64,000 nt of DNA, taken from contig QZKH01000002.1 in the NCBI GenBank assembly GCA_003598025.1, forward strand, positions 10,133 to 74,132. The letters are read 5' to 3'. Of this stretch, positions 22,577 through 51,044 are shown piece after piece. The notes under the pieces were generated by a model. The model did not search any database. It was not told the origin of the DNA and was given only the letters and a program-made list of their open reading frames with translations. Position numbers and translations under genes: made by a program. The stretch is from Candidatus Omnitrophota bacterium (GTDB taxonomy: Bacteria > Omnitrophota > Gorgyraeia > Gygaellales > Profunditerraquicolaceae). Every line of letters starts with the position of its first letter. Within the stretch, counting starts at the first letter, position 1.

Positions 22577-23590
22577 ATGATTCTTAAAAATGACAAGATA
22601 ACTTTGGGCCACGGCGCCGGAGGAAGGCGCATGCACAGCCTTATAAGCGAACTCTTTCTCAAGGAGTTCAATAACCCTGTACTCTCTGAGTTAGGAGACA
22701 GTGCGTTAATTAATATCAAGGGCCGGATCGCTTTTTCCACAGATTCATTCGTTGTAGACCCGGTTATCTTTGAAGGCGGAGATATCGGTAAATTAAGCGT
22801 TTGCGGGACGATAAATGACCTTGTGGTGTCCGGGGCTATCCCTAAGTTTTTATCATTGGCTATCATAGCAGAGGAGGGCCTGGATATTCTATTGCTTAAA
22901 AGGATAGTTGCATCTATAAAAAAATCTTCCAAAGCAGCCGGCATTACGATAGTAACCGGTGATTTTAAAGTCGTGGAAAAGGGTGCCTGTGACAATATAT
23001 TTATCAATACTGCGGGGATAGGGATTTCGATTTCCGGCAGATTATTAGCTGCCGATAGGATAGTAAACGGCGACAAAATTATAGTCACCGGGAATATAGC
23101 CGAACACGGCTTAGCGGTATTAAGCAGAAGGATGGGTTTTTCTTTAGAAGGCCAGATAAGAAGCGATTGCGCAGCATTAAACGGCCTTATATTGCCTGTT
23201 TTAAGAAGGTTCAATAGCATAAAATTTATGCGCGACCCGACACGCGGCGGCCTGGCTACGACATTAAATGAGATTGCCAAATTGGCAAATGTAGGCTTAG
23301 TCATAAATGAAAAGGATATACCTGTCACCAGCAAGGTAAATGCCGGTTGCGAATTGCTGGGCATGGATCCTTTGTTTATTGCCAATGAAGGTAAAGCTGT
23401 AATAATAGCTGAGAGCAGGCAATCTTTGAGAATTGTGGATATGCTGCGCAGGCACCCTTTAGGCAAGAATGCAGCGATAATAGGCAGTGTTGTTAAAAAT
23501 CCGGCTCGAAAGGTTATAATAAAGACAATTACCGGTTCCAGGCGTGTATTAGATATGGCTCCGGATGAAATTACGCCAAGAATATGCTAG
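22577..23590 (+). CDS. hypE: Hydrogenase maturation protein HypE (AIR-synthase-related, carbamoyl dehydratase)
   Basis: N-terminal KITLGHGAGGRRMHSLI (HypE GHG(A/G)GG motif) and PurM-like N and C domains. It is 337 aa and ends in ...PRIC with the conserved terminal Cys. Confidence 0.8.
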   Translation: MILKNDKITLGHGAGGRRMHSLISELFLKEFNNPVLSELGDSALINIKGRIAFSTDSFVVDPVIFEGGDIGKLSVCGTINDLVVSGAIPKFLSLAIIAEEGLDILLLKRIVASIKKSSKAAGITIVTGDFKVVEKGACDNIFINTAGIGISISGRLLAADRIVNGDKIIVTGNIAEHGLAVLSRRMGFSLEGQIRSDCAALNGLILPVLRRFNSIKFMRDPTRGGLATTLNEIAKLANVGLVINEKDIPVTSKVNAGCELLGMDPLFIANEGKAVIIAESRQSLRIVDMLRRHPLGKNAAIIGSVVKNPARKVIIKTITGSRRVLDMAPDEITPRIC

Positions 23591-23748
23591 GGAGCAGATT
23601 AAAGCAAAGTTTTTGATAAAAATACCCCCAATTTTTAAAAAAACCTTGACAAACAAACAGCATTATGATTAAATTAATTAAATAGAAAAAAATTTTTAAT
23701 TTTTTTTGGAGGAAGAATAAAATAAATTGAAAAAAATAGTGTAAAACC

Positions 23749-23780
23749 AAGGGCTCTGATTTTACGGAGCCCTTTTTTAT
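23749..23780 (+). terminator. Intrinsic terminator-like hairpin (AAGGGCTC-N10-GAGCCCTT followed by a T6 run); possible attenuator in the leader of the ATP-grasp/kamA operon
   Basis: Directly visible: an 8-bp GC-containing stem 23749-23756 / 23767-23774, a 10-nt loop and a TTTTTT run. It lies only 10 nt upstream of the ATG at 23790 and about 100 nt downstream of a TTGACA box at 23646. Confidence 0.45.
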
Positions 23781-23789
23781 GTTTTTAAA

Positions 23790-24779
23790 ATGATATCCGT
23801 AGGATTAACATACGATTTAAAATCAGATTATACATTTAAAGAAGGCGACCCGCCCGACGCAAATGCCGAGTTTGACAGTCCTTCTACCGTTGACGTTATT
23901 GCAAATGCCATAAAGGCATGTGGGTTCAACGTTAAGAAGATCGGCAATGCCAGCAAGGTGCTGGAGAATTTCGGCAACCTCGATGTAGATATAGTGTTTA
24001 ATATTTCAGAAGGCCTTACCGGGCGCAATAGAGAATCCCAGGTACCTATACTTTTAGAGATGGCCGGCATTCCTTATGTGGGTTCCGATGCTTTTACTCT
24101 GGCACTTACATTGGATAAGGTAATGGCTAAGAAGATCTTTACTGCCGGAAATATACCCACCCCGAAATATTTCGAAATAAAAACCGAGGAAGAATTAATA
24201 AACCTTGACCATTGCAGGTTCCCCTTAATAGTGAAGCCGCGTTTTGAGGGCTCCTCAAAAGGATTAAGTGAAAACTCAAGAGTTGCAAATGAAAAAGAGC
24301 TTAAAGCCCAAGCCAGCCGTATAATAAATATTTACAAACAGCCGGCATTGGTAGAAGAATTTATAAGGGGTAAAGAGTTTACTGTGGCTGTCGTCGGTAA
24401 TGATAGTCCCGAGGTCCTGCCGGTTGTGCAGATAAAAATTGACGGCAACCTTGATTTAAAAGACCAGTTTTATACTTTTGCCCGTATAGCCAGCGATAAA
24501 CTTGAGTACGTTTGCCCGGCCAAAATAAGCAAAAAACTCGAGAATAAAATTTCTGAACTGGCCTTGATGACTTATAATGCGGTTGAATGCCGTGATTTTG
24601 GAAGAATTGATTTCCGGGTTGATGAAAAGGATAATCCCTATGTCTTAGAGATCAATCCTTTGCCGTCACTTTCCACCGAAGATGTATTTATGCTTCTTGC
24701 GCAGAATAAAGGCATGACTTATGCCCAGATGATCGGGAAAATACTTAACGGTGCATTTAAGAGGTACGGAATCGTATAG
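23790..24779 (+). CDS. D-alanine--D-alanine ligase family ATP-grasp enzyme (paralogue 1)
   Basis: Ddl N-domain (GIPYVGSDAFTLALTLDKVMAKKIF), a central ATP-grasp region (PLIVKPRFEGSSKGLS...ALVEEFIRGKEFTV) and a C-terminal EINPLPSLS. Confidence 0.75.
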   Translation: MISVGLTYDLKSDYTFKEGDPPDANAEFDSPSTVDVIANAIKACGFNVKKIGNASKVLENFGNLDVDIVFNISEGLTGRNRESQVPILLEMAGIPYVGSDAFTLALTLDKVMAKKIFTAGNIPTPKYFEIKTEEELINLDHCRFPLIVKPRFEGSSKGLSENSRVANEKELKAQASRIINIYKQPALVEEFIRGKEFTVAVVGNDSPEVLPVVQIKIDGNLDLKDQFYTFARIASDKLEYVCPAKISKKLENKISELALMTYNAVECRDFGRIDFRVDEKDNPYVLEINPLPSLSTEDVFMLLAQNKGMTYAQMIGKILNGAFKRYGIV

Positions 24780-25808
24780 ATGAAAATTGCGCTTGCGTGC
24801 AATTTGAAGAAGAAGGACAAGACTAAGCCGGTAGATTATTTCTCGGAATTTGACTCCGAGGAAACAGCGCAGGCGATAATTTCTGCTTTGGCTAAAAAGG
24901 GCCATAGCGTTGATTTTGTAGATTTGAATTATCCCGATATTTTGTCATATTTTCGGAAAAACAGGGTTGACATGGTATTTAATATCGCCGAAGGAAGATT
25001 CGGTAAATACCGTGAATCAGAGGTACCGGCAGTTTTGGATTATTTAAAGATCCCTTATACCGGTTCAAGGCCGTTTTCTCTGGCATTGGCGCTTAATAAA
25101 TCTCTGACAAAAAAGATACTTATTGCTGAAGGTATCCCTACTCCTAAATCACAGCTCTTTCTAAGAGGGGACGAGGAATTAAACCCGGAATTAAAATTCC
25201 CGTTGATTGTCAAACCTAATCGTGAGGGTTCGGGTAAAGGCATAGGTTTATCAAGCGTTTTTCTTAAAAGAGAGACGCTTTATGATAAGATTAGAGAGAT
25301 AATAAAAGTTTATAACCAGGAGGCACTGGTCGAAGAGTTTGTTGACGGCAAAGAATTGACCGTTGGTATATTGGGTAATAATAACCCGACGATCTTGCCT
25401 ATATTAGAAATAGATTTTTCTGATTGTGTTTCAAGCGGAGAATATTTTTACAGCTGGCGTATGAAAGAATTTCAGGGTAACAAAGATCTGGGGTTGACCC
25501 CGAAATTCTACTGCCCTGCAAGGTTAGACCAGGAAACGGCAAGCATAGTCAAGGCAGCTGCTTTAAAGACTCATAAAGCAATAGGGTGTTTTGATATATC
25601 GCGGACTGATATACGTTTAAATAAGGATAATACCCCTTATGTTTTAGAGATTAATCCTCTACCTGGGCTTAATCCCCGGGAATCAAACTTCCCGATGATG
25701 GCATATGCCGCAGGTATGAAGTATGAGGATATAATAGAGTCGATACTTATTAGCGCTTCAGAAAGAGAAAGGAGCAAAATTGGGCAACCAATTAGTAACC
25801 GAGAATAA
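24780..25808 (+). CDS. D-alanine--D-alanine ligase family ATP-grasp enzyme (paralogue 2)
   Basis: KIPYTGSRPFSLALALNKSLTKKIL, PLIVKPNREGSGKGIG, ALVEEFVDGKELTV and EINPLPGLN. It has the same architecture as the upstream gene and starts 1 nt after that gene's stop. Confidence 0.75.
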   Translation: MKIALACNLKKKDKTKPVDYFSEFDSEETAQAIISALAKKGHSVDFVDLNYPDILSYFRKNRVDMVFNIAEGRFGKYRESEVPAVLDYLKIPYTGSRPFSLALALNKSLTKKILIAEGIPTPKSQLFLRGDEELNPELKFPLIVKPNREGSGKGIGLSSVFLKRETLYDKIREIIKVYNQEALVEEFVDGKELTVGILGNNNPTILPILEIDFSDCVSSGEYFYSWRMKEFQGNKDLGLTPKFYCPARLDQETASIVKAAALKTHKAIGCFDISRTDIRLNKDNTPYVLEINPLPGLNPRESNFPMMAYAAGMKYEDIIESILISASERERSKIGQPISNRE

Positions 25809-26955
25809 AGCTGTAAATGAAGCTACCGCGCAGCCACGCTCTAGGAGATCGCAGGATTATCAGCAGATAAGCCTGTATAAAGACGTCAACCCTTTAGACT
25901 GGGAAGATTGGCATTGGCAACTCAAACACAGAATTTATTCCAAGGACGACCTTTCGCAAATAATAAAAATCACTTCAGAGGAAGAAGCGGCAATAAAAAA
26001 GGCTAGCGGCAGGTTATCTATGGCCATAACTCCTTATTGGGCTTCTCTAATCGACCCTGAAGACCCGGCATGCCCTTTAAGAAGGCAGGCAGTGCCAGTA
26101 TTGGCGGAATCAGAAATCGGCCCGCATGAAATGACTGATCCTTGCGCAGAAGACAGGGATTCACCTGCCCCGCACCTGGTACACAGGTACCCGGACAGGG
26201 TCCTGCTTTTAGCAACCGAGCATTGCGCTATGTATTGCCGTCATTGCACCCGACGCAGGCTAGTCGGCGAACATCCTGAGTCTAAAACCGATTCCAGGTT
26301 CGATCAGGCGATAGAGTATATAAAATCCAACCGTAAAATCAGGGATGTGCTTATATCGGGAGGGGATCCTTTGGTTATGGAAGACGAAGATATCGAGGAT
26401 CTGCTTAAAAAGATCCGCTCGATATCTCATGTAGAATTTGTCAGGATCGGCACGCGTGTGCCCGTGACCCTGCCTCAGAGGATAACGGAAAAATTAGTAA
26501 ATACCCTTAAAAAGTATTCTCCTGTTTGGATGAGCATACATTTCAATCATCCTAAAGAGATCACTAAACGTTGCAAGATGGCATGCGATATGCTTGCCGA
26601 TGCCGGTATACCGCTAGGCAGCCAGACAGTCCTGCTCAAGGGCATAAATGACAGGCCTTATATCATGCGTAAGCTTGTGCATGAACTCCTCAAAATAAGA
26701 GTCAGGCCGTATTATATATATCAATGCGACCCGGTAAAAGGCACTCAGCATTTCAGGACATCGGTCTCTGCCGGGATCAACATCATGGAGAAATTACGCG
26801 GGCATACCTCTGGATATGCTGTGCCGACTTATGTTATTGACGGGCCAGGAGGCGGAGGTAAGATCCCCGTCGGGCCTAATTATATCTTATCTCAGGCTAA
26901 AGGCAAGTTCGTCCTGAGAAATTACAAGGGCAAGATTTATACTTATTCAGAATAA
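25780..26955 (+). CDS. kamA: Lysine 2,3-aminomutase family radical SAM/PLP enzyme (KamA-like)
   Basis: Near-collinear with B. subtilis KamA: WEDWHWQLKHRI, ITPYWASLIDPEDPACPLRRQAVP, DSPAPHLVHRYPDRVLLLATEHCAMYCRHCTRRR (the CxxxCxxC radical SAM cluster). TTG start with an AAAGGAG RBS. Substrate (lysine, glutamate or another amino acid) is not resolvable by eye. Confidence 0.8.
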   Translation: MGNQLVTENKAVNEATAQPRSRRSQDYQQISLYKDVNPLDWEDWHWQLKHRIYSKDDLSQIIKITSEEEAAIKKASGRLSMAITPYWASLIDPEDPACPLRRQAVPVLAESEIGPHEMTDPCAEDRDSPAPHLVHRYPDRVLLLATEHCAMYCRHCTRRRLVGEHPESKTDSRFDQAIEYIKSNRKIRDVLISGGDPLVMEDEDIEDLLKKIRSISHVEFVRIGTRVPVTLPQRITEKLVNTLKKYSPVWMSIHFNHPKEITKRCKMACDMLADAGIPLGSQTVLLKGINDRPYIMRKLVHELLKIRVRPYYIYQCDPVKGTQHFRTSVSAGINIMEKLRGHTSGYAVPTYVIDGPGGGGKIPVGPNYILSQAKGKFVLRNYKGKIYTYSE

Positions 26956-27176: not shown

Positions 27177-27205
27177 TTGACCCTTAAATAAGCCTATTAT
27201 ATAAT
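27177..27205 (+). promoter_or_regulatory. σ70-type promoter (TTGACC-N17-TATAAT)
   Basis: Read directly: TTGACC at 27177-27182, a 17-nt spacer, TATAAT at 27200-27205. It lies about 85 nt upstream of the EF-G-like ATG, which has the RBS AAAGGAG. Confidence 0.6.
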
Positions 27206-27291
27206 TCATATATTGCTTGATAAATCAGCTATGATCTTTGTCCTGCCTGCACAAGCCTTCTTTTTAAATATTTTAAAAAAGGAGTTGCGAT

Positions 27292-29247
27292 ATGGATGCA
27301 AAGAACAAGAGGAGTATTATCCTTTTAGGGCATGCTCAATCCGGTAAAACCAGCCTTGCCGAAAGCATGCTTTATTTTACCAAATCCAGCAGCAGAAAAG
27401 GCACAATAAATGACGGCACCACTGTCAGCGATTATAGCAGCGATGAGATCGAAAGAAAAAGTTCAATAAACTTAAGTTTCATGTTCTGTGATCATAAAGG
27501 GGTAAGGATCCAGATTGTTGATGCCCCTGGTTATGCCGATTTCCAAGGGGAAGTGTTTTCTGGAGTAAGGGCGGTAGATAATGCCGTTATAATAGTTGAT
27601 GCCTCTGGAGGGGTTGAGGTAGGGACAGAGAGGGCCTGGCAGCTGGCGGAAGAGTATGAGCTACCTGCCATTCTATTTATTAATAAGACAGATAAAGAAA
27701 ACTCCGGTCCGGAAAAGGTATTGACAGATATCCGTCAGAGGCTTTCTCCCAAGGCAATGGTTATAAATTCTTTGGAAGACCCTGAACTGGTTGAGGCGAT
27801 TGCAGAGAGCGATGATAAACTGCTGGAAAAATATCTTGAAGGCGCCAAGCTTACAAGTGAAGAATTGTCTTTAGGCCTTACCCTGGCAGTATCAAAAAGG
27901 AAAGTATTTCCCGTAATAGCAGGCTCAGCTTTGGCTGATAAAGGCATAGCAGAACTTTTAGATGCGGTTGTTAATTATTTGCCCAGCCCTTTAGAAAGAA
28001 AAGTAATGGCGCATGAGCCCTTAGGTAATACAGAAAAAGAAATCTCCTGTAAGCCCGATGAGCCGTTTTCTTCCTTTGTATTTAAAAGCTTTTCTGACCC
28101 GTATATAGGGCAATTAACGCTGTTAAGGGTTTTTTCGGGGGGGCTTGCTGCTAATACCGGATTTTATAATGTAAGCAAGAAGCTTAAAGAAAAAATCGGG
28201 CCTATTTATATGCTGCAGGGTAAAGAACAAAGGCCTGTTGATTCTGCTTCTTGCGGGGATATAGTTGCTATCGCTAAATTAAAAGATACCTTCACAAATG
28301 ATTCTTTGAGCGATGAGAAGCACCCCGTAGTATTTGATCCGATTGTTTTTCCCGAACCGGCGATATCAGCATCGGTTAAGCCAAAGACCAGCCATGATGA
28401 GGAAAAGATCTCCATAGCCCTGCATAAACTGGCAGCTGAGGACCCCACTTTTAAGTCAACGCATGACCCTCAGACGAAAGAATTGATTATTTCCGGATTA
28501 GGGGACCAGCATTTAGATGTAATGGTCGGGCGCATGAAAAAAAGGTTTCATGTTGAGGTAGATGTGGGCACTCCCAAAGTTTCCTACAGAGAGACGATTT
28601 CTAAGTCGGCTAAGGTACAAGGCAAATTTAAGCGTCAGTCAGGCGGCAGGGGCCAATATGGTGACGTATGGCTTGAGATACAGCCGCTTGAGAGAGGCGC
28701 GGGTTTTGAATTCGTTGATAAGATTTTCGGCGGAGCAATACCGAGAAATTATATCCCTTCGGTTGAAAAGGGCGTATTACAGGCTTGCCAGGAGGGAGCA
28801 ATAGCAGGGTATCCTATAGTTGACCTGCGTGTCATACTTTTTGACGGTTCCTATCATGAAGTAGACTCTTCTGATATGGCCTTTCAGATCGCCGGCTCCA
28901 TGGCTTTAAGGAAAGCAATACTGGCGGCAGGCCCGATTTTACTGGAGCCTTTTATGGATGCAGAGATTGTGATCCCCGAGGAATATTTAGGAGCGATATC
29001 CGGTGATATGAATTCACGGCGCGGCAGGATCATAGGCATGGAGATAAAAGGCAAGAAGCAAATAGTAAAGGCGCAAGTACCGCTTTCAGAGATGTTTAGG
29101 TATGCTAATGATCTGCGTTCAATTACCGGAGGAAGGGGCGTTTATACTATGCGCTTTTCGCATTATGGAGAAGTACCGCATAAAGTATCCGCTAATATAA
29201 TCGCACAATATCAGTCAACAAAGAAGCAGGAAGAAGCTACGGTTTGA
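27292..29247 (+). CDS. EF-G family translational GTPase paralogue with divergent G motifs
   Basis: EF-G five-domain architecture (651 aa), but G1 is [10 protein letters not shown] rather than AHIDAGKTT and G3 is DAPGYADF rather than DTPGHVDF. NKTD (G4) is conserved. The C-terminal domains IV/V are EF-G-like (e.g. GDQHLDV, GGRGQYG). Confidence 0.75.
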
Positions 29248-29257
29248 GGAGCCCTAC

Positions 29258-29959
29258 GTGAAAATATCTAACTTTTCAGTACCCAATATAAATATAGGTA
29301 AGCATAATATTAAAGACCAAAGGCTTGACCAGGTAGACAGTATTGTAAAAGCCAAGAAAAAAACGTATATACAGGTAGAGGTTATTGCCCCTGAGCTTAT
29401 GCTCGAGGCAGATGCTATAATTGTTCCCCGTGATCTTACAAGCGACCTTATATTAAAGGATTTGGAGTTCACTGAGACCAGGCTTTCAAGGAGCGCCGAC
29501 GAAAAAGAGAAGGCGCTGCTTGCTTTTATCAAGGCCCAGCTTGAGAAAGAAGTTTTTGTTTGTAACATGCAGCTGGATGCCGAACAGAAACAGCTTGTTT
29601 CAGGATACGGCTTGATTACAGGCAGGCCAGTAATCGTTGCAGAGAGCAGCGATTCGGATAACACCAACTCCTTTTTATCCAGGGCTGTTGCTGAAGGAGG
29701 CTTTATCAGCTTTTTTACTGCCGGAGAAAAAGATACCCGAGCATGGCTTATACGCAAGGGAACAACTGCCTGGCTTGCCGCAGGCGTAATCCATTCAGAT
29801 ATTCAGCGCGGATTCATACGCGCCGAGATAATAAGTTTCAATGATTTTATACAATTTGGCGGTGAGGTAAAAGCTAAACAGGCAGGTAAAATGAGGCTTG
29901 AGCAGAAGGATTATATTATGCAGGACGCAGATTTAGCAAATTTCCGTTTTAATAAATGA
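29258..29959 (+). CDS. YchF/OLA1-like protein lacking the P-loop G domain (helical and TGS domains retained)
   Basis: The C-terminal region [39 protein letters not shown]...[24 protein letters not shown] closely matches the YchF TGS/DUF933 domain. The N-terminus has no GxxxxGK[ST] motif and is only about 60 aa, where YchF has a ~150-aa G domain. GTG start with a GAGGAG RBS. Confidence 0.6.
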
Positions 29960-29981: not shown

Positions 29982-31538
29982 ATGGCCCAGGTGAAGCGCG
30001 CTTTAATAAGTGTTTCCGATAAAACAGGCATATTGGATTTTGCAAAAGAGCTGGACAAAATGGGTATCGAGATTCTTTCTACGGGAGGGACAGCTAAACT
30101 CCTGCGCGAAAACAAAATATCCGTGAAAGATGTTTCGGATTATACGGGTTTTCCGGAAATACTTGATGGCAGGGTTAAGACATTGCATCCTAAGATCCAT
30201 GCCGGGCTTCTTGCATTAAGAGAGAACAGCCAGCATATGCTTACGTTAACTGACCTGGGTTTAGGATTGATAGACCTCGTAGTCGTAAATTTATATCCCT
30301 TTGAAAAAACAACCCAGAAGCCGGGTGTTACTATTGAAGAGGTAATCGAGAATATCGATATCGGCGGGCCGTCAATGCTTCGTTCCGCGGCTAAGAATGC
30401 CCATTCAGTAGTTGTGGTATGTAACCCCAGTCGTTATTCCCAGGTTATAAGTGAACTAAAGGCAAATAACGGCTCGATCCCGGAAGGGCTTATGCGCAGC
30501 CTGGGTGTAGAGGTATTCTTGCATACCAGCCGTTACGACAATGCGATATATAATTATCTGAGCAATTATTTTAGCGGTAAAACAGAAGATACCGCATTTC
30601 CTAGCGAAGTCAGTTTTACATTTGAGAAGATACAGGACCTAAGATATGGAGAAAACTCTCATCAAAAGGCAGCATTCTATAAGGAAAAAAACAAAAATAG
30701 GGGTATCATTAATTTAAAACAGCTCCAGGGCAAAGAGCTATCTTTCAATAATATCCTTGATTTAAACAGCTCATGGGAGCTTGTCAATGAATTTGAAAAT
30801 CCGGCAGCTGTAATAGTCAAGCATAATAATCCCTGTGGCGTTGCGCAAGATTATAGCCTTTCCAAGGCATATCTTAGCGCATGGAAATGCGACTCACTTT
30901 CGGCATTTGGCGGGATAGTGGCATTAAACAGAAAGCTTGATTTAACAACTGCGAAATTGATTGCAAAGAGCGGATTCCTGGAATGTATAATTGCCCCAGA
31001 TTATGATGAGCAGGCAAAAGGATATTTCAAGGATAAGAAAAATCTTAGGGTGCTTACGTTGAAGGATTCAGGCCCTATGCTTGATACCGATTTAAAAAGG
31101 GTCAGCGGAGGACTGCTTTTGCAGGATAAAGATGTAAAGACCATTGATTTGAAAGAGATTAAAATAGTTACTAAGAAAAAACCAAGCAAAGTTCAAATGC
31201 AGAGTTTAATTTTCGGATGGAAGGTGGCAAAGCACGTAAAATCAAATGCGATAGTCCTTACCAGGGGCAATAAAACCGTAGGCATAGGTGCCGGCCAAAT
31301 GTCCAGGGTAGATTCTGTTACTATAGCTAAAATTAAATCATCAGGCCAGATAAAGAACTCTTGTCTTGCTTCTGATGCCTTCTTTCCGAAGGCAGATGCC
31401 GTGGTGCTGGCGGCTAAATCAGGAGTGAAGGCGATAATACAGCCGGGCGGCTCGATTTCGGACAAGGAAATAATAAAAGCCTGCGATAAATATGGTATTT
31501 CTATGGTATTTACCGGTATCAGGCATTTCAGGCATTGA
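29982..31538 (+). CDS. purH: Bifunctional AICAR transformylase / IMP cyclohydrolase
   Basis: The MGS-like N-terminus MAQVKRALISVSDKTGILDFAKELDKMGIEILSTGGTAKLL and the AICARFT domain follow PurH over the full length (518 aa). Confidence 0.9.
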   Translation: MAQVKRALISVSDKTGILDFAKELDKMGIEILSTGGTAKLLRENKISVKDVSDYTGFPEILDGRVKTLHPKIHAGLLALRENSQHMLTLTDLGLGLIDLVVVNLYPFEKTTQKPGVTIEEVIENIDIGGPSMLRSAAKNAHSVVVVCNPSRYSQVISELKANNGSIPEGLMRSLGVEVFLHTSRYDNAIYNYLSNYFSGKTEDTAFPSEVSFTFEKIQDLRYGENSHQKAAFYKEKNKNRGIINLKQLQGKELSFNNILDLNSSWELVNEFENPAAVIVKHNNPCGVAQDYSLSKAYLSAWKCDSLSAFGGIVALNRKLDLTTAKLIAKSGFLECIIAPDYDEQAKGYFKDKKNLRVLTLKDSGPMLDTDLKRVSGGLLLQDKDVKTIDLKEIKIVTKKKPSKVQMQSLIFGWKVAKHVKSNAIVLTRGNKTVGIGAGQMSRVDSVTIAKIKSSGQIKNSCLASDAFFPKADAVVLAAKSGVKAIIQPGGSISDKEIIKACDKYGISMVFTGIRHFRH

Positions 31539-31583: not shown

Positions 31584-32936
31584 GTGACCTATCCCGAAGT
31601 TCTCAAGTATTTAGAATCCTTTATAAACTACGAAAAGATCCCGGTTTACCCGTATAAAGAATCTTGTAAACTTGAACGGGTCAAAGGCCTCTTGGATCTG
31701 ATCGGTAATCCCCAGCATAAATTAAGGTGTGTGCATGTTGCCGGTTCCAAGGGCAAGGGTTCGACTTGCTCTTTTGCCGCATATATTTTAAGGGCCTGCG
31801 GTTTTCAAGTAGGGCTATATACATCTCCGCATTTGAATGATTTTAGAGAAAGAATCAGAGTCTTAAGTTATCAGGCGTCAGCTTTCAGCCGCCAGTGTGA
31901 TTTTGAAGGGATGATAACTGAGCAGGAATTAACCGGGATAGTCACAGAATACAAAGCGGTTTTTGATGATTATTGCAGTAAATCGGAATATGGCCCGCTT
32001 TCTTTCTTTGAAGTCTATACTACGATAGCGTTTATTTATTATTTAAGGAAAAATGTGGATTTTGTCGTCCTTGAAACAGGGCTTGGAGGCAGGCTTGATG
32101 CTACTAATACGGTTTATTCTTTAGTCAGTGTAATCACCCCGATAAGTTATGAGCATACACAGAAATTAGGCAATACGCTTGGTGAAATTGCCTATGAAAA
32201 AGCTGGGATAATAAAAGGAATCAAGGAATCAAGGGGGCCGATAGTCATTTGTGCGCCTCAAGAAAAAGAAGTTACGGAAGTAATTAAGAAAAAATGCCAG
32301 GATACGGGGTCAAGGCTATACAGGGTAGGAGAGGATATCTTATATGGCCATAAGGCCGGGAAATTATGGATCAAAGGTATTTTCGGAGAATATCATGATT
32401 TGGAGATAAAGCTTGCCGGCGAACACCAATTAATGAATGCAGTTACTGCTGTTGCAGCAGTAGAAGCGCTGCATTTTCTTGGAATTCATTCCCGGCCTGA
32501 ATGCATAAGAGAAGGGTTAAAAAACACTTCTTGGCCAGGAAGGTGCGAGGTGGTCTCCAGGAAACCTCTTGTTGTCTTAGACGGAGCCCATAATGAAGCT
32601 TCGGCAAGAGCTCTCAGGGAGACGCTGTTAAATAACTTTAAATTTAAACGCGTGATCTCAGTGATAGGAATGTCCAATGACAAAGATATAGCAGGATTCT
32701 GCAGGGAGCTTGATAAAATTAGCGATATTGTAATTTTGACCAAAGCGGATAACCCCAGGGCAGTTGAACCTAACGAATTAAGCCTGTTTTTTAGGACACA
32801 ACACAAGTTTATTGCCTCCGATTTAAGATCCGCCAGACTTGAAGTTATCAATAACGCGGCTCAAGAAGACCTTGTAATTATAACCGGATCTTTATTTCTT
32901 GTTGGAGAGGCCAGGGTATTATCATGGGCAAGTTAA
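31584..32936 (+). CDS. folC: Folylpolyglutamate synthase / dihydrofolate synthase (Mur ligase family)
   Basis: P-loop VAGSKGKGSTC and the Mur ligase middle and C domains. GTG start. Confidence 0.8.
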   Translation: MTYPEVLKYLESFINYEKIPVYPYKESCKLERVKGLLDLIGNPQHKLRCVHVAGSKGKGSTCSFAAYILRACGFQVGLYTSPHLNDFRERIRVLSYQASAFSRQCDFEGMITEQELTGIVTEYKAVFDDYCSKSEYGPLSFFEVYTTIAFIYYLRKNVDFVVLETGLGGRLDATNTVYSLVSVITPISYEHTQKLGNTLGEIAYEKAGIIKGIKESRGPIVICAPQEKEVTEVIKKKCQDTGSRLYRVGEDILYGHKAGKLWIKGIFGEYHDLEIKLAGEHQLMNAVTAVAAVEALHFLGIHSRPECIREGLKNTSWPGRCEVVSRKPLVVLDGAHNEASARALRETLLNNFKFKRVISVIGMSNDKDIAGFCRELDKISDIVILTKADNPRAVEPNELSLFFRTQHKFIASDLRSARLEVINNAAQEDLVIITGSLFLVGEARVLSWAS

Positions 32937-34357
32937 AATATACCTCTGATACTATAGCAGCTATTTCTACTTCGTCGGGTGATTCGGGTATTGGAATAGT
33001 GCGTATAAGCGGTAGCGATGCTATCGCAATTGCCGATAGGATCTTTGTTTCCAAGGATAAGAAATTGCCCAGCGGTTTTAAGACATATACTATCCATTAT
33101 GGGTGGATAGTAGATAGTTCACAGTTAATAGTTCACAGTTCACAGAATAAAGAGAATGAGTTGCCTCGGAATAATATTGTGGATGAAGTCTTGCTTACTG
33201 TGATGCGTGCGCCCAGGTCTTTTACTAAAGAAGATATAATAGAAATAAATTGTCATGGCGGCCCAGTTGCTATGCGCGCAGTTTTAGATCTAGCCTTGGC
33301 TAATGGGGCAAGATTGGCTGAACCCGGCGAGTTTACAAAGCGCGCGTTTCTAAACGGCAGAATTGACCTGGCCCAGGCAGAAGCGGTGTTGGACGTTATC
33401 AGCGCAAAGACGGAGATGGCCCTTAGAGTAGGCGCCAGGCAGCTTGCCGGGGTTTTATCGGTCAAAATAGAGGACATAAGGAGCCGTATTTTAGAGATTT
33501 TGGCGTTGCTTGAGGCTAATATAGATTTTCCTGAAGAAGAGATTGGTTCGATTGATTTTGGCAGATTGTGCAAGGCAGCGGATGATATACGTTCACGCAT
33601 ATCCGGGATTCTCGACAGCGCAAATAAGGGTAAGATTATACGTGATGGAATAAAGGTTGTTATATGCGGCAAGGCTAATGTGGGTAAGTCTTCCCTTCTC
33701 AATGCATTATTAAAAGAAGAGAGGTCTATAGTCACTCATATTGCAGGTACGACCCGTGACACAATAGAAGAGATGATAGATATAAGAGGGATTCCTGTAT
33801 GCATAGTTGATACTGCAGGGATGCTGAAACCCAGGGATGTAATCGAAAAGAAAGCTTTGAAGCGCTCGAGAAAATATATACAATCAGCAGATTTATTATT
33901 GCTGTTATTTGATGCGGGAAAGAAATTGGATAAGCATGACAGGATGCTTATTAAAAAGCTTTCCAAAAAAGAATGCATTGCAGTAATAAATAAAATCGAC
34001 CTCAAGGCAAGGATCAGCAAGGAAGAGATAAAGAAGTATTTTGATAAAGTCATAGAAATATCAGTAAAGAAACACAAGAATATTAATATCCTTGAGGATA
34101 CTTTTACAGAATGGGCTTTTAAGGGTTCTTACGGTGCAGAATCTGTGCTAATCAGCAACCTCAGGCACATCGAAGCCTTAAAAAGCGCAAATAAACTTGT
34201 TGCTGAAGCCAGGGAATTAATGGATAATAAATTATCCGCAGAGTTGATTGCGCAAAGCCTTAGAGAGGCTATTTCCCAGTTGGACTTGATATTGGGGAAG
34301 AATTTTAACCAGGATTTAATAGATAAGATATTCAATGATTTCTGTATAGGTAAGTAG
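32924..34357 (+). CDS. mnmE: tRNA modification GTPase MnmE (TrmE)
   Basis: The N-domain, a G domain ([18 protein letters not shown]) and the C-terminal ...FCIGK tetrapeptide. It contains an in-frame low-complexity insert ([10 protein letters not shown]) encoded by a GTTCACAG tandem repeat. Confidence 0.85.
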
Positions 34358-34365
34358 GAGAGAAA

Positions 34366-34935
34366 ATGAAAGAAATGAATAAAAAGAAGATCGAAGATGC
34401 GGTAAGGCAGATACTGGAGGCAATAGGCGAGAACCCGCGTAAAAAAGATCTATTGGATACCCCCAGGAGAGTCGCCGAGATGTATGAAGAGATTTTTTCC
34501 GGTATAAGCCAGGACCCGAATAAAGAATTAGAAGTTATACTGGACCAGAAACATCATGAAATAATACTTCTCAAGAATGTGCCTTTATACAGCGTATGCG
34601 AGCATCATCTCTTGCCTTTTATAGGCAAAGCGCATATAGCCTACATACCGCGCAAGGGCAGAGTAACGGGGTTAAGTAAATTGGCAAGAGTGGTGGATAT
34701 TCTGGCAAGAAGGCCGCAGGTCCAGGAGAGGCTCACTACTCAAATAGTCGAGATCATTATGTCTAAATTGAGGCCTTTAGGAGCTATGGTAGTCATAGAG
34801 GCAGAGCATCTTTGTATGTCTATGCGTGGTGTAAGAAAGCCGGGTACACTTACTGTCACATCGGCAGTCAGGGGTATTTTTAAGGAAAACGAAAAGACTC
34901 GTGCAGAGACATTAGCGCTGATGAAAGATAGGTAA
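34366..34935 (+). CDS. folE: GTP cyclohydrolase I
   Basis: The CEHHLLPF active-site motif, the size (189 aa) and overall collinearity with FolE. Confidence 0.9.
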
Positions 34936-35738: not shown

Positions 35739-35793
35739 CCTGAAACGAACTAAACACCCATTAAGCTAATTGAAAAGTTTTTGTCCGGAGATT

Positions 35794-35860: not shown

Positions 35861-38383
35861 ATGGATAAACCTAAAGAAAAAACCGGATTATCTCTTCAAG
35901 AAAAGCTATTATCCTTCCAAAGTCTTATAAATAATTTCCCTATCCCAATATTTTACAAGGATTTAAAAGGCAATTATCTGGGTTGCAACCTGGCCTTTAA
36001 GCAATACCTCGGGTTGGATAAAAGCGATATTATAGGCAAGAGCGCATATGATATTTCTCCGGTTGATCTAGCGATTAACCATAAAGAGCGGGACCAGGAG
36101 TTATGTGAAAAAGGCGGGTCCCAGAAGTATGAAACAGCGGTTCTTGGCGCAGACGGCTTAAGGCATAATGTCGAATTCTATAAAGAGGTATTTTATGATG
36201 AAAAAGGGAATAAGGCCGGAATAATCGGGATAATATTTGATATAACCGAAAGAAAGAAGAAAGAAGAGTTATTAAAAGAGGCCCGCCAGGAATTAGAGAT
36301 AAGGGTTAAGGTGCGCACTGCAGAGATAGCCAAGATAAACGAGGATCTGCGTAAAGAAATCAATGAAAGGAAACGCGCAGAAGAAGCTCTGCGGGAAAGC
36401 GAAGAAACATACAGGGCGCTTGTTAATAACTCGCTGTTTGGTGCTTTTATTATTCAAGATGAGAAGATCGTATTTGTTAACCCAAAAATGATGGAGGTTA
36501 TGGGTTATTCCCAGCAGGAAGCGTTGAATGAGGATATTTTTGCATTTGTCCATCCCGAAGATAAAGAAAAGGTGAGAAATTATTATCACCTGCGTCTAAC
36601 GGGAAAAGATGCCCCGAGTGTTTATGAAGCCAGGGGTATAGCTAAAGATGGCAAGGTGATCTATTGGCAAGTGCAGGCATCGTTGATAAATTACCGGAAT
36701 AGGCCGGCGATTTTTGTGAACTTAGTAGATATAACGGCGAGAAAGGAATTCGAGGATAAGCTTGAAAAAAGCAAAGAAGAGATACGGATGTACCTGGATA
36801 TTGCGAATGTCATAATATTGATTATAGATAAAGATTCCAAAGTAAGATTGATAAATAAAAAGGGCTGCAACGTACTCGGCTATAATGATTATAAGGAGAT
36901 TATAGGCAAAGACTGGTTTAATACATTCTTGCCTAAGAAATACAGGAATAAGGTAAAAGAGGTCTTTGAGGAGCTGATGGCAGGCAAGGTTAAAGAATTC
37001 GGAGAGGCAGAGAATCCTGTTATAACCAGGGATGGCAAGGAAAAAGTTATACTTTGGCATAACAGCCTGATAAAAGATCCCGGAGGCAAGATAGTTGCCA
37101 CTATCAGTTCCGGGCAAGATATCACGGAGCGCAAAGCCGTAGAAAAGAAAATTGCCCATATGAACCTTGAACTCAATAGGACCAACAAGAAACTTAAACA
37201 GCTGGCTTTGCTTGACCTGGGTACAGGCGTATATAACCACCGTTATTTAACCGAAATTATCGAAGCTGAATTCTACCGCGCAAGAAGATATGCGCATCCT
37301 TTATCTGCGATAATGATGGACGTGGATTATTTTAAATCCATAAATGATGTGTACGGGCATAAATTTGGAGACATGGTCTTAAAACAGCTTGCAACCCAGC
37401 TTAAGAAGATGGTGCGTAAATATGATATCATCGTCAGGTTCGGCGGCGAGGAGTTTGTAATAATCTCTCCGGGGGCAGATAGGTCCACAGCCTTGGTTTT
37501 AGCACAAAGATTATTAGATGCTGTCAATTTGTATAATTTCGGCAACAAAATACATTCAGTTAAAATACGCATGAGTGTGGCTGTAGTCTCATACCCGGAA
37601 GATAAATCAGTAAAGGGGATGGACCTTATTGATGAAGCCGCAGAGATTGTAAATAAAATAAAAGAAAAAGGCGGTAATGCCGTTTCCTGCTCCCTGGATT
37701 TAAAAAAGGTAAAAACCAGGGTTAAGGTTAATCACAAGGCGCATGATAATGTCAAGTCTCTGCAGAGAAGGGTCAACCTTCTTAATAAAAGGTCCAAGGA
37801 AAATCTGATTGAAGCCGTTTTTGCTTTTGCTAAAACAATAGAAGTCAGGGATCATGGCACTGGTGAGCATACTGAGAGAACAGTAGGGTATGCCACGCAG
37901 ATAGCAAAGGCCATGAATCTGCCTCAGGAAGAAATCGAGCATATAAAACAGGCAGCGATACTGCATGATTTGGGAAAAATAGGCATAAGCGAGGACGTTT
38001 TAAACAAGAAAGATAAATTAACTAAGGAAGAATTTAAACAGATACAGAAGCATACCCAAATAGGCGTAGATATCATTCGCCCTATACAGTTCCTTCACCC
38101 CATAATCCCGCTGATACTTTACCATCATGAGAGATGGGATGGTAAGGGCTATCCGGGCGGTTTAAAGGGCGAAGAGATACCTGTAGGCGCAAGAATAGTC
38201 GCATTGGCAGATGTATACCAGGCTTTGACTTCGGACCGCCCTTACCGTAAGGCATTTTCTAAAGACAAAGCCATAGAAATCATCAAAAATGGCTCCGGAT
38301 CGCATTTTGACCCGCAGATTGTAAACATATTCCTGAATTTAATCAATATCAAAGAGAAAGTAACTAAGAAAAAGCGCCATTAG
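35861..38383 (+). CDS. Multi-PAS sensor with GGDEF diguanylate cyclase and HD-GYP phosphodiesterase domains
   Basis: At least three PAS-like repeats are present. The GGDEF active site is RFGGEEF. The HD-GYP motifs are ILHDLGKIGI and HHERWDGKGYPGG. Confidence 0.85.
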   Translation: MDKPKEKTGLSLQEKLLSFQSLINNFPIPIFYKDLKGNYLGCNLAFKQYLGLDKSDIIGKSAYDISPVDLAINHKERDQELCEKGGSQKYETAVLGADGLRHNVEFYKEVFYDEKGNKAGIIGIIFDITERKKKEELLKEARQELEIRVKVRTAEIAKINEDLRKEINERKRAEEALRESEETYRALVNNSLFGAFIIQDEKIVFVNPKMMEVMGYSQQEALNEDIFAFVHPEDKEKVRNYYHLRLTGKDAPSVYEARGIAKDGKVIYWQVQASLINYRNRPAIFVNLVDITARKEFEDKLEKSKEEIRMYLDIANVIILIIDKDSKVRLINKKGCNVLGYNDYKEIIGKDWFNTFLPKKYRNKVKEVFEELMAGKVKEFGEAENPVITRDGKEKVILWHNSLIKDPGGKIVATISSGQDITERKAVEKKIAHMNLELNRTNKKLKQLALLDLGTGVYNHRYLTEIIEAEFYRARRYAHPLSAIMMDVDYFKSINDVYGHKFGDMVLKQLATQLKKMVRKYDIIVRFGGEEFVIISPGADRSTALVLAQRLLDAVNLYNFGNKIHSVKIRMSVAVVSYPEDKSVKGMDLIDEAAEIVNKIKEKGGNAVSCSLDLKKVKTRVKVNHKAHDNVKSLQRRVNLLNKRSKENLIEAVFAFAKTIEVRDHGTGEHTERTVGYATQIAKAMNLPQEEIEHIKQAAILHDLGKIGISEDVLNKKDKLTKEEFKQIQKHTQIGVDIIRPIQFLHPIIPLILYHHERWDGKGYPGGLKGEEIPVGARIVALADVYQALTSDRPYRKAFSKDKAIEIIKNGSGSHFDPQIVNIFLNLINIKEKVTKKKRH

Positions 38384-50800: not shown

Positions 50801-51044
50801 AGCAGTAACAACCGGCGGCAGGGACCGCTTAAGACCTGTGTTAATGACTACTATTACTACTCTCGTAGGCCTTCTTCCGCTGGCTTTATTTCAGGGGGAA
50901 GGGTCTGAATCCTGGCAGCCTTTAGGTATTACCATGATAGGAGGCCTTACCGTTTCGACGCTGATTACGTTATTGTTTGTCCCGACGCTTTATGCTATAT
51001 TTGAATCCAGGGTCAAGAAGAATAAGAGGAAAACCAATGCATAA
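47871..51044 (+). CDS. RND superfamily efflux transporter (AcrB/HAE1-like)
   Basis: 1057 aa with a 12-TM, two-large-periplasmic-loop organisation. Conserved TM4 and TM10 regions are present (e.g. SLSSLAIASGMVVDNAIVVVDNV, GIVMLMGIVVNNAIVLI). Confidence 0.9.
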   Translation: MKLAEFGVKRPVANLMIFTAIIVLAFYSLTRLGVDSFPEIEPPSISVISSYPGANPEDVEIKVTEVLENQLATTPGIEKITSHSSEGSSVVTLKFSWGTDLDAASNDIRDRIEIAKRSLPDIPDEMDNPFIFKFNTSNIPILFMGITATQSYTELYDLLDDRIADPLRQLPGVGTVQFQGGGLERQINVWIDRERLQGYGFSILDIKNAIKAENITQPVGNIKVGLTDYSIRLPGEFTDPGQINSVVLGKRNGKIIYLRDVARVEDGFKEVTTIARVDEGRAIIMMVQKQSGTNTVEVADRVKKKLEELRYTLPPDVKMRLMFDNSEDIKTSLSSLKATTWFAILLVIVVVWFFLRQFAASMIVALTIPFSLLISFIYLFLSGKTINVISLSSLAIASGMVVDNAIVVVDNVWRRIEHGQRTSEASIFGTSEIFLAIAASTLTTIVVFMPLLFLTGVVGKLFGELAAIIIVTLSASLFTAVTFSPMLCSKWLKPDHKSLKAGLFNRMYAVSEQWFKSMENTYSNMLAWCLKYKKMVISISLGILIFVGLLTRFVGNEFIPEEDTGDLRISAHLPIGTRVEETDGLARKIEQIFKDEIPEAKYFYVRSGQLSGIGRAFGNVSGTHIVSAGIKLVPKTERKLSVKETAEVVRNRITAIPGVMKVDITTGNPMGRLITGGGKSIQVEIIGHSFEETDALALKIKGLIEGIPGAVEVSISREANRPELKIDVDRQKSSALGLDMSTIADTVNTFIQGSVASKYRESGDTYDIYVRADDFSRSDIEDIKNIPVVPADSAFSLSSGSNPRLSQDLRKTQITLSNIAEIRQENIPQEIERKNRERIVKVECNAYRRSTGKIVEDINKELKNMIIPAGIQVIIGGEAEEQAKAFKDLFLLLILGILLVYMVMAAQFESLLDPFIIMFSIPFTFIGVILAFIITGTNLSVISFLGIVMLMGIVVNNAIVLISYINILRARGYSMHEAVTTGGRDRLRPVLMTTITTLVGLLPLALFQGEGSESWQPLGITMIGGLTVSTLITLLFVPTLYAIFESRVKKNKRKTNA

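Follow-up and report, generated by a model that had tools for sequence, protein, structure and literature searches.

An EF-G2-subfamily gene followed by a YchF derivative without nucleotide-binding motifs, conserved in order across Omnitrophota

Elongation factor G is found as the canonical EFG I, encoded by fusA in the str operon, and as a paralogue, EFG II or EF-G2. The EFG II signature, with a P-loop that begins with Gly and ends with Leu, RGITI replaced by xxxSx and the catalytic His replaced by Tyr or Phe, is that of a subfamily described in 2007-2011 (PMC3150367). In the P-loop, of the form GhxxxGKT, the two residues are Gly at position 16 and Leu at position 25 of 1WDT, where EFG I has Ala and Thr/Gly, and a further hallmark is the extra positive charge (Lys/Arg-rich) of loop I in domain IV, 1WDT 469-472 (PMC3150367). 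EF-G2 of Bacteroides thetaiotaomicron has a reported role in slow translocation (bioRxiv 10.64898/2026.05.25.727771), and its gene, fusA2, is strongly induced on carbon limitation. Mycobacterium smegmatis EF-G2 has Tyr98 in place of the His and is without ribosome-dependent GTPase activity. Genes for the known EF-G2s lie outside the str operon and accompany a canonical fusA.

YchF is an Obg-family ATPase and not a translational GTPase, so that the sequence-only reading of the locus described here erred in grouping its YchF-like protein with translational-GTPase relatives. YchF occurs in 99.4% of non-CPR genomes. The E. coli protein binds the 50S subunit at uL14/bL19/H62, chiefly through its helical domain, and K149, K152, K156 and K159 of the helical tip contact H62 of 23S rRNA (PMC11814078).

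The window (the whole 64-kb stretch of Omnitrophota DNA that was analysed) contains relatives of both proteins in adjacent genes. The genes and sites of this locus all lie on the plus strand. The first gene (27292-29247) encodes a protein of 651 aa in which all five EF-G Pfam domains (GTP_EFTU, EF-G_D2, EFG_III, EFG_IV and EFG_C) scored above cut-off, the same five-domain body as in T. thermophilus EF-G-2, M. smegmatis EF-G2 (PDB 9K0Z/9K10) and B. thetaiotaomicron FusA2. Its G1 motif or P-loop (aa 13-22, 27328-27357) has the EFG II hallmarks of Gly at the first and Leu at the last position. This motif had been described as altered; it does differ from AHIDAGKTT of canonical EF-G, yet it still fits the Walker A consensus, and it is near-invariant among 120 homologues and in 45 Omnitrophota species. 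In switch I (G2) the sequence ERKSSI (aa 54-59, 27451-27468) replaces RGITI and places Ser at the Mg-binding Thr position, and KSSI is kept across the 45 species. G3 reads DAPGYADF (aa 77-84, 27520-27543), and Tyr81 (27532-27534) stands at the position of the catalytic His, as the earlier reading had noticed. DxPGY was present in 116 of 120 close homologues, the remaining 4 having no motif match, and in every Omnitrophota locus that includes the region. G4 is NKTD (27682-27693; read in the protein and its homologues), retaining guanine specificity, and it is intact together with G5, GSAL. T. thermophilus EF-G-2 (PDB 1WDT, 2DY1), with GHAGSGKTTL and DAPGYGDF, shares the P-loop pattern and DAPGY with the window protein. 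Features common to this protein and the known EF-G2s are the loss of RGITI, Ser at the Mg-binding position, Tyr after DxPG, and the retained NKxD and SAx.

The overall architecture is that of canonical EF-G, and domains III-V are highly similar to it, including the GGRGQYG and SYHEVDSS tip loops. The domain IV tip (28621-28872) is near-invariant over 45 species; loop I (28621-28662) contains GKFKRQSGG, compared with GKFIRQTGG in T. thermophilus EF-G, and loop II (28849-28872) is identical to that of canonical EF-G. The G' subdomain is about 42 residues short relative to T. thermophilus EF-G and about 40 residues shorter than in known EF-G2s, its beta-sheet part missing and its acidic helix kept. 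The remnant formed three helices in an AF2 model, which had a mean pLDDT of 63 from a shallow alignment and was used for the G-domain part alone.

Among NCBIfam models, the generic 'elongation factor G' subfamily NF009381 gave 840 bits and TIGR00484 was marginally passed (678 against 659), and the named EF-G2 equivalogs remained below cut-off (NF009377, 578 against 890; NF058620, 503 against 1000). The protein is extremely unlikely to belong to the ribosomal protection proteins of the Tet(M)/Tet(O) type, or to be a non-EF-G translational GTPase of another kind such as BipA, LepA or RF3. It is shorter than EF-G, its G' is reduced as in the protection proteins, and Tet proteins appeared among the weaker matches; however, scores against the corresponding cut-offs were 309.8 against 775 for tet_protect, 156 against 757 for TypA, 123 against 534 for LepA and 153 against 473 for RF3, and in domains III-V the similarity to T. 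thermophilus EF-G is about what is seen between one EF-G and the next.

The residue at the catalytic-His position was surveyed in the 150 nearest 50%-identity cluster representatives. In the 139 that could be scored it was Tyr in 73 and Phe in 30 (103/139), and His in 9. Eight of the 9 His sequences carry AH[IV]DAGKTT and DTPGH[VI]DF; the remaining one is of EFG II type. A neighbor-joining tree with 100 bootstraps, in which canonical EF-G was defined by AHIDAGKT plus RGITI, separated EFG I by a split present in 100/100 replicates. The window protein fell among the non-His sequences, in an Omnitrophota EFG II clade of its own (92/100). The His-bearing sequences were not found as a single split in this tree, and an EFG II-type Zixibacteria protein (P0376, DCPGHTDF) keeps the His. 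The protein combines the sequence features of EFG II, namely five domains, the P-loop, xxxSx in G2, DxPG/NKxD/SAx, a basic loop I and a tree position outside EFG I. AHIDAGKTT, RGITI and DTPGH of canonical EF-G are all changed, the gene lies outside a str operon, and identity to an Omnitrophota fusA product was 37%. The proposal that it is an EF-G paralogue and not fusA therefore stands, and judged by its sequence it is a typical member of EFG II, a family already known and widespread. The G motifs, switch I and the domain IV loops are near-invariant in 45 Omnitrophota species, which argues that the gene is under purifying selection and not in decay. The term "degenerate" used for it earlier is hence misplaced, as its G1/G2/G3 pattern is the defining signature of EFG II. 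Taken alone, the EF-G half of the locus is nothing new; it is an ordinary EF-G2.

The sequence-only reading had further suggested that loss of the His may impair GTP hydrolysis. The EF-G2 of M. smegmatis, which lacks ribosome-dependent GTPase activity, agrees with this. T. thermophilus EF-G-2, with the same DAPGY, is reportedly active both as a ribosome-dependent GTPase and in translocation. Because this protein has the same Tyr, loss of hydrolysis is not assured, and by this comparison Tyr at the catalytic-His position alone does not predict loss of GTPase activity.

A second EF-G was not found in the 64-kb window, and the only DxPGH-type GTPases among all open reading frames of 80 fetched loci were encoded by IF-2 genes. 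An open reading frame at 47871-51044 (1057 aa), considered as a long-form EF-G, proved to be an RND-type transporter. It is very unlikely that the window EF-G is the only or principal translocase of its genome with substitutions spread through the phylum, a scenario that had been named as one that would overturn the paralogue assignment. The substitutions are indeed phylum-wide, the tip loops of domain IV are preserved, a strong and conserved promoter is present, and the TIGR00484 cut-off is passed marginally. However, Omnitrophota MAGs carry canonical EF-G (AHIDAGKTT/RGITI/DTPGHVDF) in rpoBC-rpsL-rpsG-fusA-tuf (str) operons, which places the canonical gene at the level of the phylum; the window gene lies elsewhere, and among 305 surveyed genomes, every EF-G gene that occurred alone was EFG I (PMC3150367).

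The second gene (29258-29959) starts with GTG and encodes a 233-aa YchF derivative, here called mini-YchF, with a remnant G-domain core, a helical hairpin and a TGS domain (aa 150-232). G1, G3, G4 and G5 motifs are missing from it. Its only Pfam domain is PF06071 (YchF C-terminal, TGS-like), matched over the full domain length at aa 150-232 with 119 bits, and the score for TIGR00092 was 131.2 bits, under the cut-off of 279.2. The TGS domain is 60% identical to that of E. coli YchF over 82 aa and as conserved as in bona fide YchF. An AF2 model (pLDDT 91.6) placed the helical hairpin at helices 58-78 and 82-96, so that the claimed retention of helical and TGS domains was borne out. Foldseek matched the model over its whole length to YchF/OLA1 structures (1JAL, 5EE3, 2DWQ, 8KIE and 2OHF; TMq 0.69-0.79). 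In common with YchF/OLA1 (TIGR00092; PDB 1JAL, 2DBY, 2OHF, 8KIE), mini-YchF has the three-lobed fold with the helical hairpin insertion and the TGS signatures FTAGxKExRAW and IHxDxxxGFIRAE. It differs in being 130 residues shorter, in its position directly after an EF-G2 gene, and in a helical tip that is shorter (by about 9 residues relative to E. coli) and less basic. R75, R78 and K85 are conserved in this region, which is also acidic, and the Lys-rich tip is not clearly conserved.

Alignment to E. coli YchF mapped the deletions to the P-loop plus alpha1, switch II and the G4-G5 segment. The matching parts of the E. coli sequence used as reference agree with a retrieved YchF comparison. The segments for DxxG of G3 and for the YchF-specific G4, N(M/L/V)xE, are deleted or substituted. 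GxxxxGK[ST] was absent from the window protein and from its orthologues in all 44 species, and G1, G3 and G4-G5 are lost in 44/44 species examined. Since the P-loop, DxxG, N(M/L/V)xE and G5 are all missing, mini-YchF cannot be an ATPase.

The start of the gene is not mis-called, because the first 47 residues of the protein are conserved among homologues. The DNA upstream is filled by the EF-G gene, and a tblastn search with a YchF query found no YchF G domain elsewhere in the 64-kb window, the sole weak match being the G domain of mnmE. The earlier description of a YchF-like protein that has no P-loop and is not mis-started was therefore confirmed. The idea that either gene, or both, is in decay or is an artefact of annotation can be dismissed almost entirely. 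Motifs are missing, and the NCBI call for the YchF-like gene in this MAG is only 186 aa, but conservation refutes both possibilities: intact frames of near-constant length with strong column conservation occur in 44-47 species, the conserved N-terminus backs the GTG start, and the fold of mini-YchF is confidently modelled. Orthologues are 225-234 aa long in 41 of the 44 species, and their alignment has 60 invariant columns. On sequence and modelled fold together, mini-YchF is a YchF by descent and under selection.

A sigma-70-type promoter lies at 27177-27205, with TTGACC (-35, 27177-27182), a 17-nt spacer and TATAAT (-10, 27200-27205). It is near consensus, as had been stated, matching 11/12 positions. 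It is not the best such match in the window, as had also been stated; three more sites (45182+, 52353+ and 7618-) equal this score. What distinguishes the EF-G2 promoter is its conservation: in 35 of 42 loci from Omnitrophota species, the orthologue is preceded by the same hexamers at the same spacing. Spacer and 5'UTR vary in sequence among these loci despite the kept hexamers. A ribosome-binding site, AGGAG (27280-27284), was read from the sequence 7 nt before the ATG of the EF-G2 gene, and a site of this type occurs at the same place in most related loci. A riboswitch or other leader in the 5'UTR was ruled out, because an Rfam search found no RNA family in the window and the 5'UTR sequence is unconserved. 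A near-consensus, conserved promoter of this kind points to expression that is strong and may be constitutive, and away from a stress switch.

The promoter is located in a 336-nt spacer that separates the EF-G2 gene from its upstream neighbour, a KamA-family lysine 2,3-aminomutase gene (kamA, 25780-26955; Pfam), which stands outside the unit. Between the EF-G2 and mini-YchF genes there is a 10-nt gap that contains the ribosome-binding site of the latter, GGAG (TGAGGAGCCCTACGTG, 29248-29251), directly after the EF-G2 stop codon and 6 nt before the GTG. By Pfam, the next genes are purH (AICAR transformylase/IMP cyclohydrolase; 29982-31538), 22 nt downstream of mini-YchF, and a folC-like gene of the Mur-ligase family (31584-32936), a neighbour in Omnitrophota loci. 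They are followed by mnmE (tRNA-modification GTPase; 32924-34357), which overlaps the folC stop, and folE (GTP cyclohydrolase I; 34366-34935; annotation in the window). No terminator-like site was found between mini-YchF and purH, and purH probably belongs to the same transcription unit. The two-gene operon proposed earlier was right in that both genes share a real promoter and a tight junction; the unit appears longer, running on into purH, folC, mnmE and folE.

The arrangement kamA/promoter-EFG II-miniYchF-purH-folC is conserved across the phylum. Of 47 Omnitrophota species loci, 44 have the order EFG II-miniYchF, with identities as low as 50% for EF-G2 and 27% for mini-YchF; kamA is upstream in most loci and purH adjacent in nearly all. 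In the three exceptions, EF-G2 is followed by purH without mini-YchF (L037), or an EFG II-type gene stands elsewhere, alone (L039, L041). Because adjacency to purH and folC is as conserved as adjacency to mini-YchF, synteny alone does not single out a partnership of EF-G2 and YchF. The two proteins may instead be passengers in a conserved housekeeping operon with no functional relation to each other, an explanation that we consider rather unlikely. EF-G2 would then act alone as in other phyla, and mini-YchF would be a reduced, possibly the only, YchF of Omnitrophota, arisen by streamlining of genome and cell size and keeping a nucleotide-independent role in subunit anti-association or RNA binding. 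No YchF-like gene stands next to the EFG II relatives in the loci examined from Bacillota and other phyla, the TGS domain of mini-YchF is conserved to the same degree as that of bona fide YchF, and ribosome-biogenesis factors are reportedly few in Omnitrophota (PMC12641178), all of which agree with passengers. Against this stand the tight junction with its own ribosome-binding site and the fact that very deeply diverged members of the phylum have retained the pair; moreover, given how widespread YchF is, loss of its ATPase would itself be exceptional.

The explanation that we prefer, and regard as probable, is that the region forms the start of an operon conserved across Omnitrophota and driven by the conserved sigma-70 promoter, in which a GTP-binding alternative translocase or ribosome factor is co-expressed with a nucleotide-independent YchF scaffold. 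EF-G2 would keep GTP binding (G1, G4, G5), switch I and the tRNA-mimicking tip of domain IV, and would be without the hydrolysis machinery that relies on the His and is activated by the SRL (Tyr for His, Gln for the P-loop Asp, RKSSI for RGITI), with G' reduced. By analogy with the Bacteroides and Mycobacterium EF-G2s, it may occupy the ribosomal factor site in its GTP form and carry out slow translocation with little or no hydrolysis, or modulate elongation in another way, beside canonical EF-G. In mini-YchF, internal deletions would have removed every nucleotide-binding element and left the fold, the helical hairpin and the highly conserved TGS domain. It may serve as a nucleotide-independent ribosome-binding accessory that docks via its helical domain and TGS domain, in the manner of E. 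coli YchF on the 50S subunit. Purine, folate and GTP-linked enzymes (purH, folC, mnmE, folE) would be produced along with both proteins. The analysis shows what the two proteins are, their family placement, conservation, synteny and promoter; we infer their activity, their ribosome binding and any physical or functional coupling between them. A ribosome-associated role remains the sensible interpretation, as first proposed; nothing specific favours a hibernation or protection module (tet_protect, 310 against a cut-off of 775).

A more speculative and improbable extension is that Omnitrophota have a dedicated ribosome factor made of two proteins, EF-G2 and the NTPase-dead YchF. Mini-YchF, docked at the 50S/30S interface near the factor site (uL14/bL19/H62, 16S h5), would position or retain an EF-G2 whose G' is reduced and whose catalytic His is missing, translocation would proceed without GTP hydrolysis, and this, with expression driven by the strong conserved promoter, could be the default low-energy mode of elongation in ultra-small, energy-limited cells and not a stress back-up.

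A literature search on YchF, DUF933 or EF-G in Omnitrophota brought up nothing specific, and neither the dead YchF nor its pairing with EF-G2 across the phylum appears to have been described. The locus indicates that, where an EF-G homologue lacks the catalytic His, membership of EF-G2 is the first reading to consider. Both EF-G2 and YchF are widespread and associated with the ribosome, and their physiological roles are still poorly defined. The fact that a YchF has shed all nucleotide binding yet keeps its fold, hairpin and TGS domain argues for a nucleotide-independent function of those parts, and the near-obligate position of mini-YchF behind EF-G2 offers a concrete, testable hypothesis that links both factors.

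The EF-G-like ORF is located at 27292-29247 on the forward strand and encodes a 651-aa protein with all five EF-G domains (Pfam); the public record lists the identical protein as 'elongation factor G [Candidatus Omnitrophota bacterium]'. The motifs quoted in the sequence-only reading were all found: the P-loop (aa 13-22, read from the sequence), the G3 motif DAPGYADF (aa 77-84), with Tyr81 in the His position, and the G4 motif NKTD. The best-scoring solved relatives overall were canonical EF-Gs (EFG I) because domains II-V are very similar; compared with these structures, the G domain is far more divergent than domains II-V. About 42 residues present in solved relatives are absent from the G' subdomain. 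The AF2 model, which was poor outside the G' remnant, showed this remnant as three helices (164-173, 175-182 and 189-201; pLDDT ~90).

The protein is an EF-G2 (EFG II) paralogue, that is, a member of a known family. The defining features of EFG II are a P-loop that starts with Gly and ends with Leu, an RGITI motif that is lost and has Ser in place of Thr, retention of G3, G4 and G5, and a more basic loop I of domain IV (Margus et al. 2011, PMC3150367); every one of them was present. T. thermophilus EF-G-2 (PDB 1WDT) has VGHAGSGKTTL ... DAPGYGDF, where the window protein has DAPGYADF. The nearest relatives outside Omnitrophota (~690 aa, ~46% identity; Bacillota, Bacteroidota and others) all have Tyr or Phe after DxPG. 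Among the best 150 representatives of 1.84 billion 50%-identity clusters, 139 could be scored at this position: Tyr was found in 73, Phe in 30 and His in 9. Eight of the nine His-bearing sequences carried canonical AH[IV]DAGKTT and DTPGH[VI]DF, with RGITI also in all seven of these eight that were taken into the tree. The ninth (P0376 / P0391, candidate division Zixibacteria) is EFG II-type by tree position and keeps His in DCPGHTDF; the change of His to Tyr or Phe is therefore typical of EFG II, not universal. In a neighbour-joining tree of 80 sequences, the window protein lay in an Omnitrophota EFG II clade (bootstrap 92/100) apart from canonical EFG I (100/100), and the canonical EF-Gs of Omnitrophota themselves were grouped (100/100). 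Model scores for Tet(M)-type proteins, BipA, LepA and RF3 were far under cut-offs.

An alternative was that this gene is the only EF-G of its genome, with substitutions shared throughout the phylum. The substitutions are indeed phylum-wide, but EF-G2 is not the sole EF-G at the level of the phylum Omnitrophota. With a canonical EF-G from Omnitrophota as query, many 697-700-aa proteins named Omnitrophota were matched, and two canonical genes (loci L081 and L084) lie within rpoBC-rpsL-rpsG-fusA-tuf-rpsJ operons. No second EF-G was found within the 64-kb window. Genomes with a single EF-G gene invariably had EFG I in a 305-genome survey (PMC3150367).

A third kind of EF-G, 990-1185 aa in length, was found in Omnitrophota outside the window (locus L083, 6001-9114, ENA ERZ21869516 contig_29; proteins P0295, P0327 and P0399-P0424). 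These proteins have an N-terminal transmembrane helix (27/30) and a Glu/Lys-rich, coiled-coil-like linker of 300-500 aa, contain a complete canonical EF-G with AHIDAGKTT, RGITI and DTPGHVDF intact, and group with Omnitrophota fusA (support 100/100). The L083 gene is placed after priA-fmt, and its contig also has an ordinary fusA within the str operon (L084). The same slot in a complete Omnitrophota chromosome (L039, CP070837.1, 9992-12049) is occupied by a 685-aa EFG II-type protein with AHSGAGKTSL and DTPGYADF; different EF-G paralogues therefore hold one genomic position across lineages. A canonical EF-G tethered to the membrane seems unusual; the long form may merit separate study.

EF-G2 had been described as degenerate. 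However, the P-loop with its unusual Gln, the switch I segment SDYSxDEIERKxSI, DxPGY, NKxD, GSA and the domain IV tip loops (a 14-residue stretch and SYHEVDSS) were near-invariant in 45 Omnitrophota species, which marks a specialised protein, not a degenerate one. The EF-G reading comes down to a protein of a known family. This near-invariance indicates that GTP binding and the nucleotide switch are very probably kept; judged from its motifs, the protein lacks the canonical His mechanism. Published data on relatives conflict on what this means for activity. M. smegmatis EF-G2, in which Tyr98 replaces His, is without ribosome-dependent GTPase and works under stress; B. thetaiotaomicron fusA2 is the most strongly induced gene on carbon limitation, and slow translocation was reported for its product (bioRxiv 10.64898/2026.05.25.727771); intrinsic and ribosome-dependent GTPase as well as translocation were reported for T. 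thermophilus EF-G-2 (PMC3150367).

The downstream ORF (29258-29959, forward strand) encodes the 233-aa mini-YchF from a GTG start 6 nt after a GGAG, which sits immediately 3' of the EF-G stop codon. Its sole Pfam domain is the YchF C-terminal domain (PF06071, aa 150-232). As had been read, it is a YchF relative without a P-loop: no Walker A motif was found in it or in 44 species-level orthologues. Foldseek aligned YchF/OLA1 structures with its whole AF2 model (pLDDT 91.6, pTM 0.82) at TMq 0.69-0.79, the next-best folds being only ubiquitin-like/TGS fragments. Compared with E. coli YchF, internal deletions have removed the P-loop with alpha1, the region of switch II and the stretch from G4 to G5, and the helical hairpin is slightly shorter; the TGS domain, at 60% identity, is complete. 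Since the missing parts lie inside the protein, the gene is neither a fission product nor mis-started. The NCBI record for the MAG gives a 186-aa 'DUF933 domain-containing protein' from an internal Met; the JGI call is the 233-aa GTG-start product. Over the first 47 residues, forty homologues align gap-free and share many invariant positions, so the 233-aa form is real and the NCBI call too short. As 41 of the 44 orthologues are 225-234 aa long, including lineages at only 27-34% identity, and none has a P-loop, the loss is an old one and the protein has been kept ever since. Elsewhere, YchF occurs in 99.4% of non-CPR genomes and in 97% of CPR genomes.

The order kamA / EFG II-miniYchF-purH-folC was found in 47 Omnitrophota species genomes with three exceptions, one with EFG II joined directly to purH and two in which an EFG II-type gene stands by itself in different surroundings; no YchF-like neighbour was found beside the non-Omnitrophota EFG II genes fetched. 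The two genes had been taken for an operon of two. Their co-transcription is supported, but in the window the unit carries on past folC into mnmE, folE and a small HisKA-domain ORF, with gaps of at most 45 nt and no terminator-like site found within it; the pair is therefore the head of a longer operon in which translation-factor genes stand beside those for purine, folate and GTP-linked enzymes. After a 345-nt gap, an 840-aa multi-PAS/GGDEF/HD-GYP-type (HD_5) signalling protein (35861-38383) opens a new unit, with a promoter-like site at 35793 (TTGACT-18-TATATT, upstream TG). On the 5' side of the operon promoter, 22577-26955 (forward strand) encodes an AIR-synthase-family protein, two D-Ala-D-Ala-ligase-like ATP-grasp proteins and a KamA-family lysine 2,3-aminomutase, which may form a beta-lysine-peptide or modification pathway; kamA is next to the EF-G2 operon in most Omnitrophota loci. 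Contigs with the kamA-to-folC order titled 'Planctomycetales bacterium' (L001, L003, L005, L014, L025, L030, L033, L034 and L041) and one mini-YchF labelled Margulisiibacteriota are probably misassigned Omnitrophota bins.

The sigma-70-type promoter TTGACC-17-TATAAT was found at 27177-27205. At 35 of the 42 loci compared, the orthologous gene is preceded by TTGAC(C/G/T)-17-TATAAT, which mostly follows a T-rich stretch, with spacer and 5'UTR sequences unrelated among these loci. By a rough uniform-composition estimate, an 11/12 match is expected by chance well under 0.01 times per 400-nt region. This conservation argues convincingly for a real promoter. It is not the single best match in the window, as had been claimed, since three more 11/12 matches exist: 45182 (+, TTGACA-17-TATACT), 52353 (+, TTGACA-17-TAAAAT) and 7618 (-, TTGACA-17-TATAAA). 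Its strength and conservation would be less expected of a tightly repressed stress gene than of a system with high and perhaps constitutive expression.

The observation as a whole was confirmed. As far as the searched literature shows, neither a YchF without a P-loop nor its pairing with EF-G2 has been described. E. coli YchF contacts the 50S subunit at uL14/bL19/H62, chiefly by the helical domain; a reach of the TGS domain as far as 16S h5 has been proposed (PMC11814078). Co-transcription, the tight gene junction and phylum-wide pairing suggest that EF-G2 and mini-YchF act together. Mini-YchF would be a ribosome-binding scaffold independent of nucleotide, and GTP-bound EF-G2 would occupy the ribosomal factor site, where it may drive slow translocation while hydrolysing little or no GTP, or tune elongation alongside canonical EF-G.
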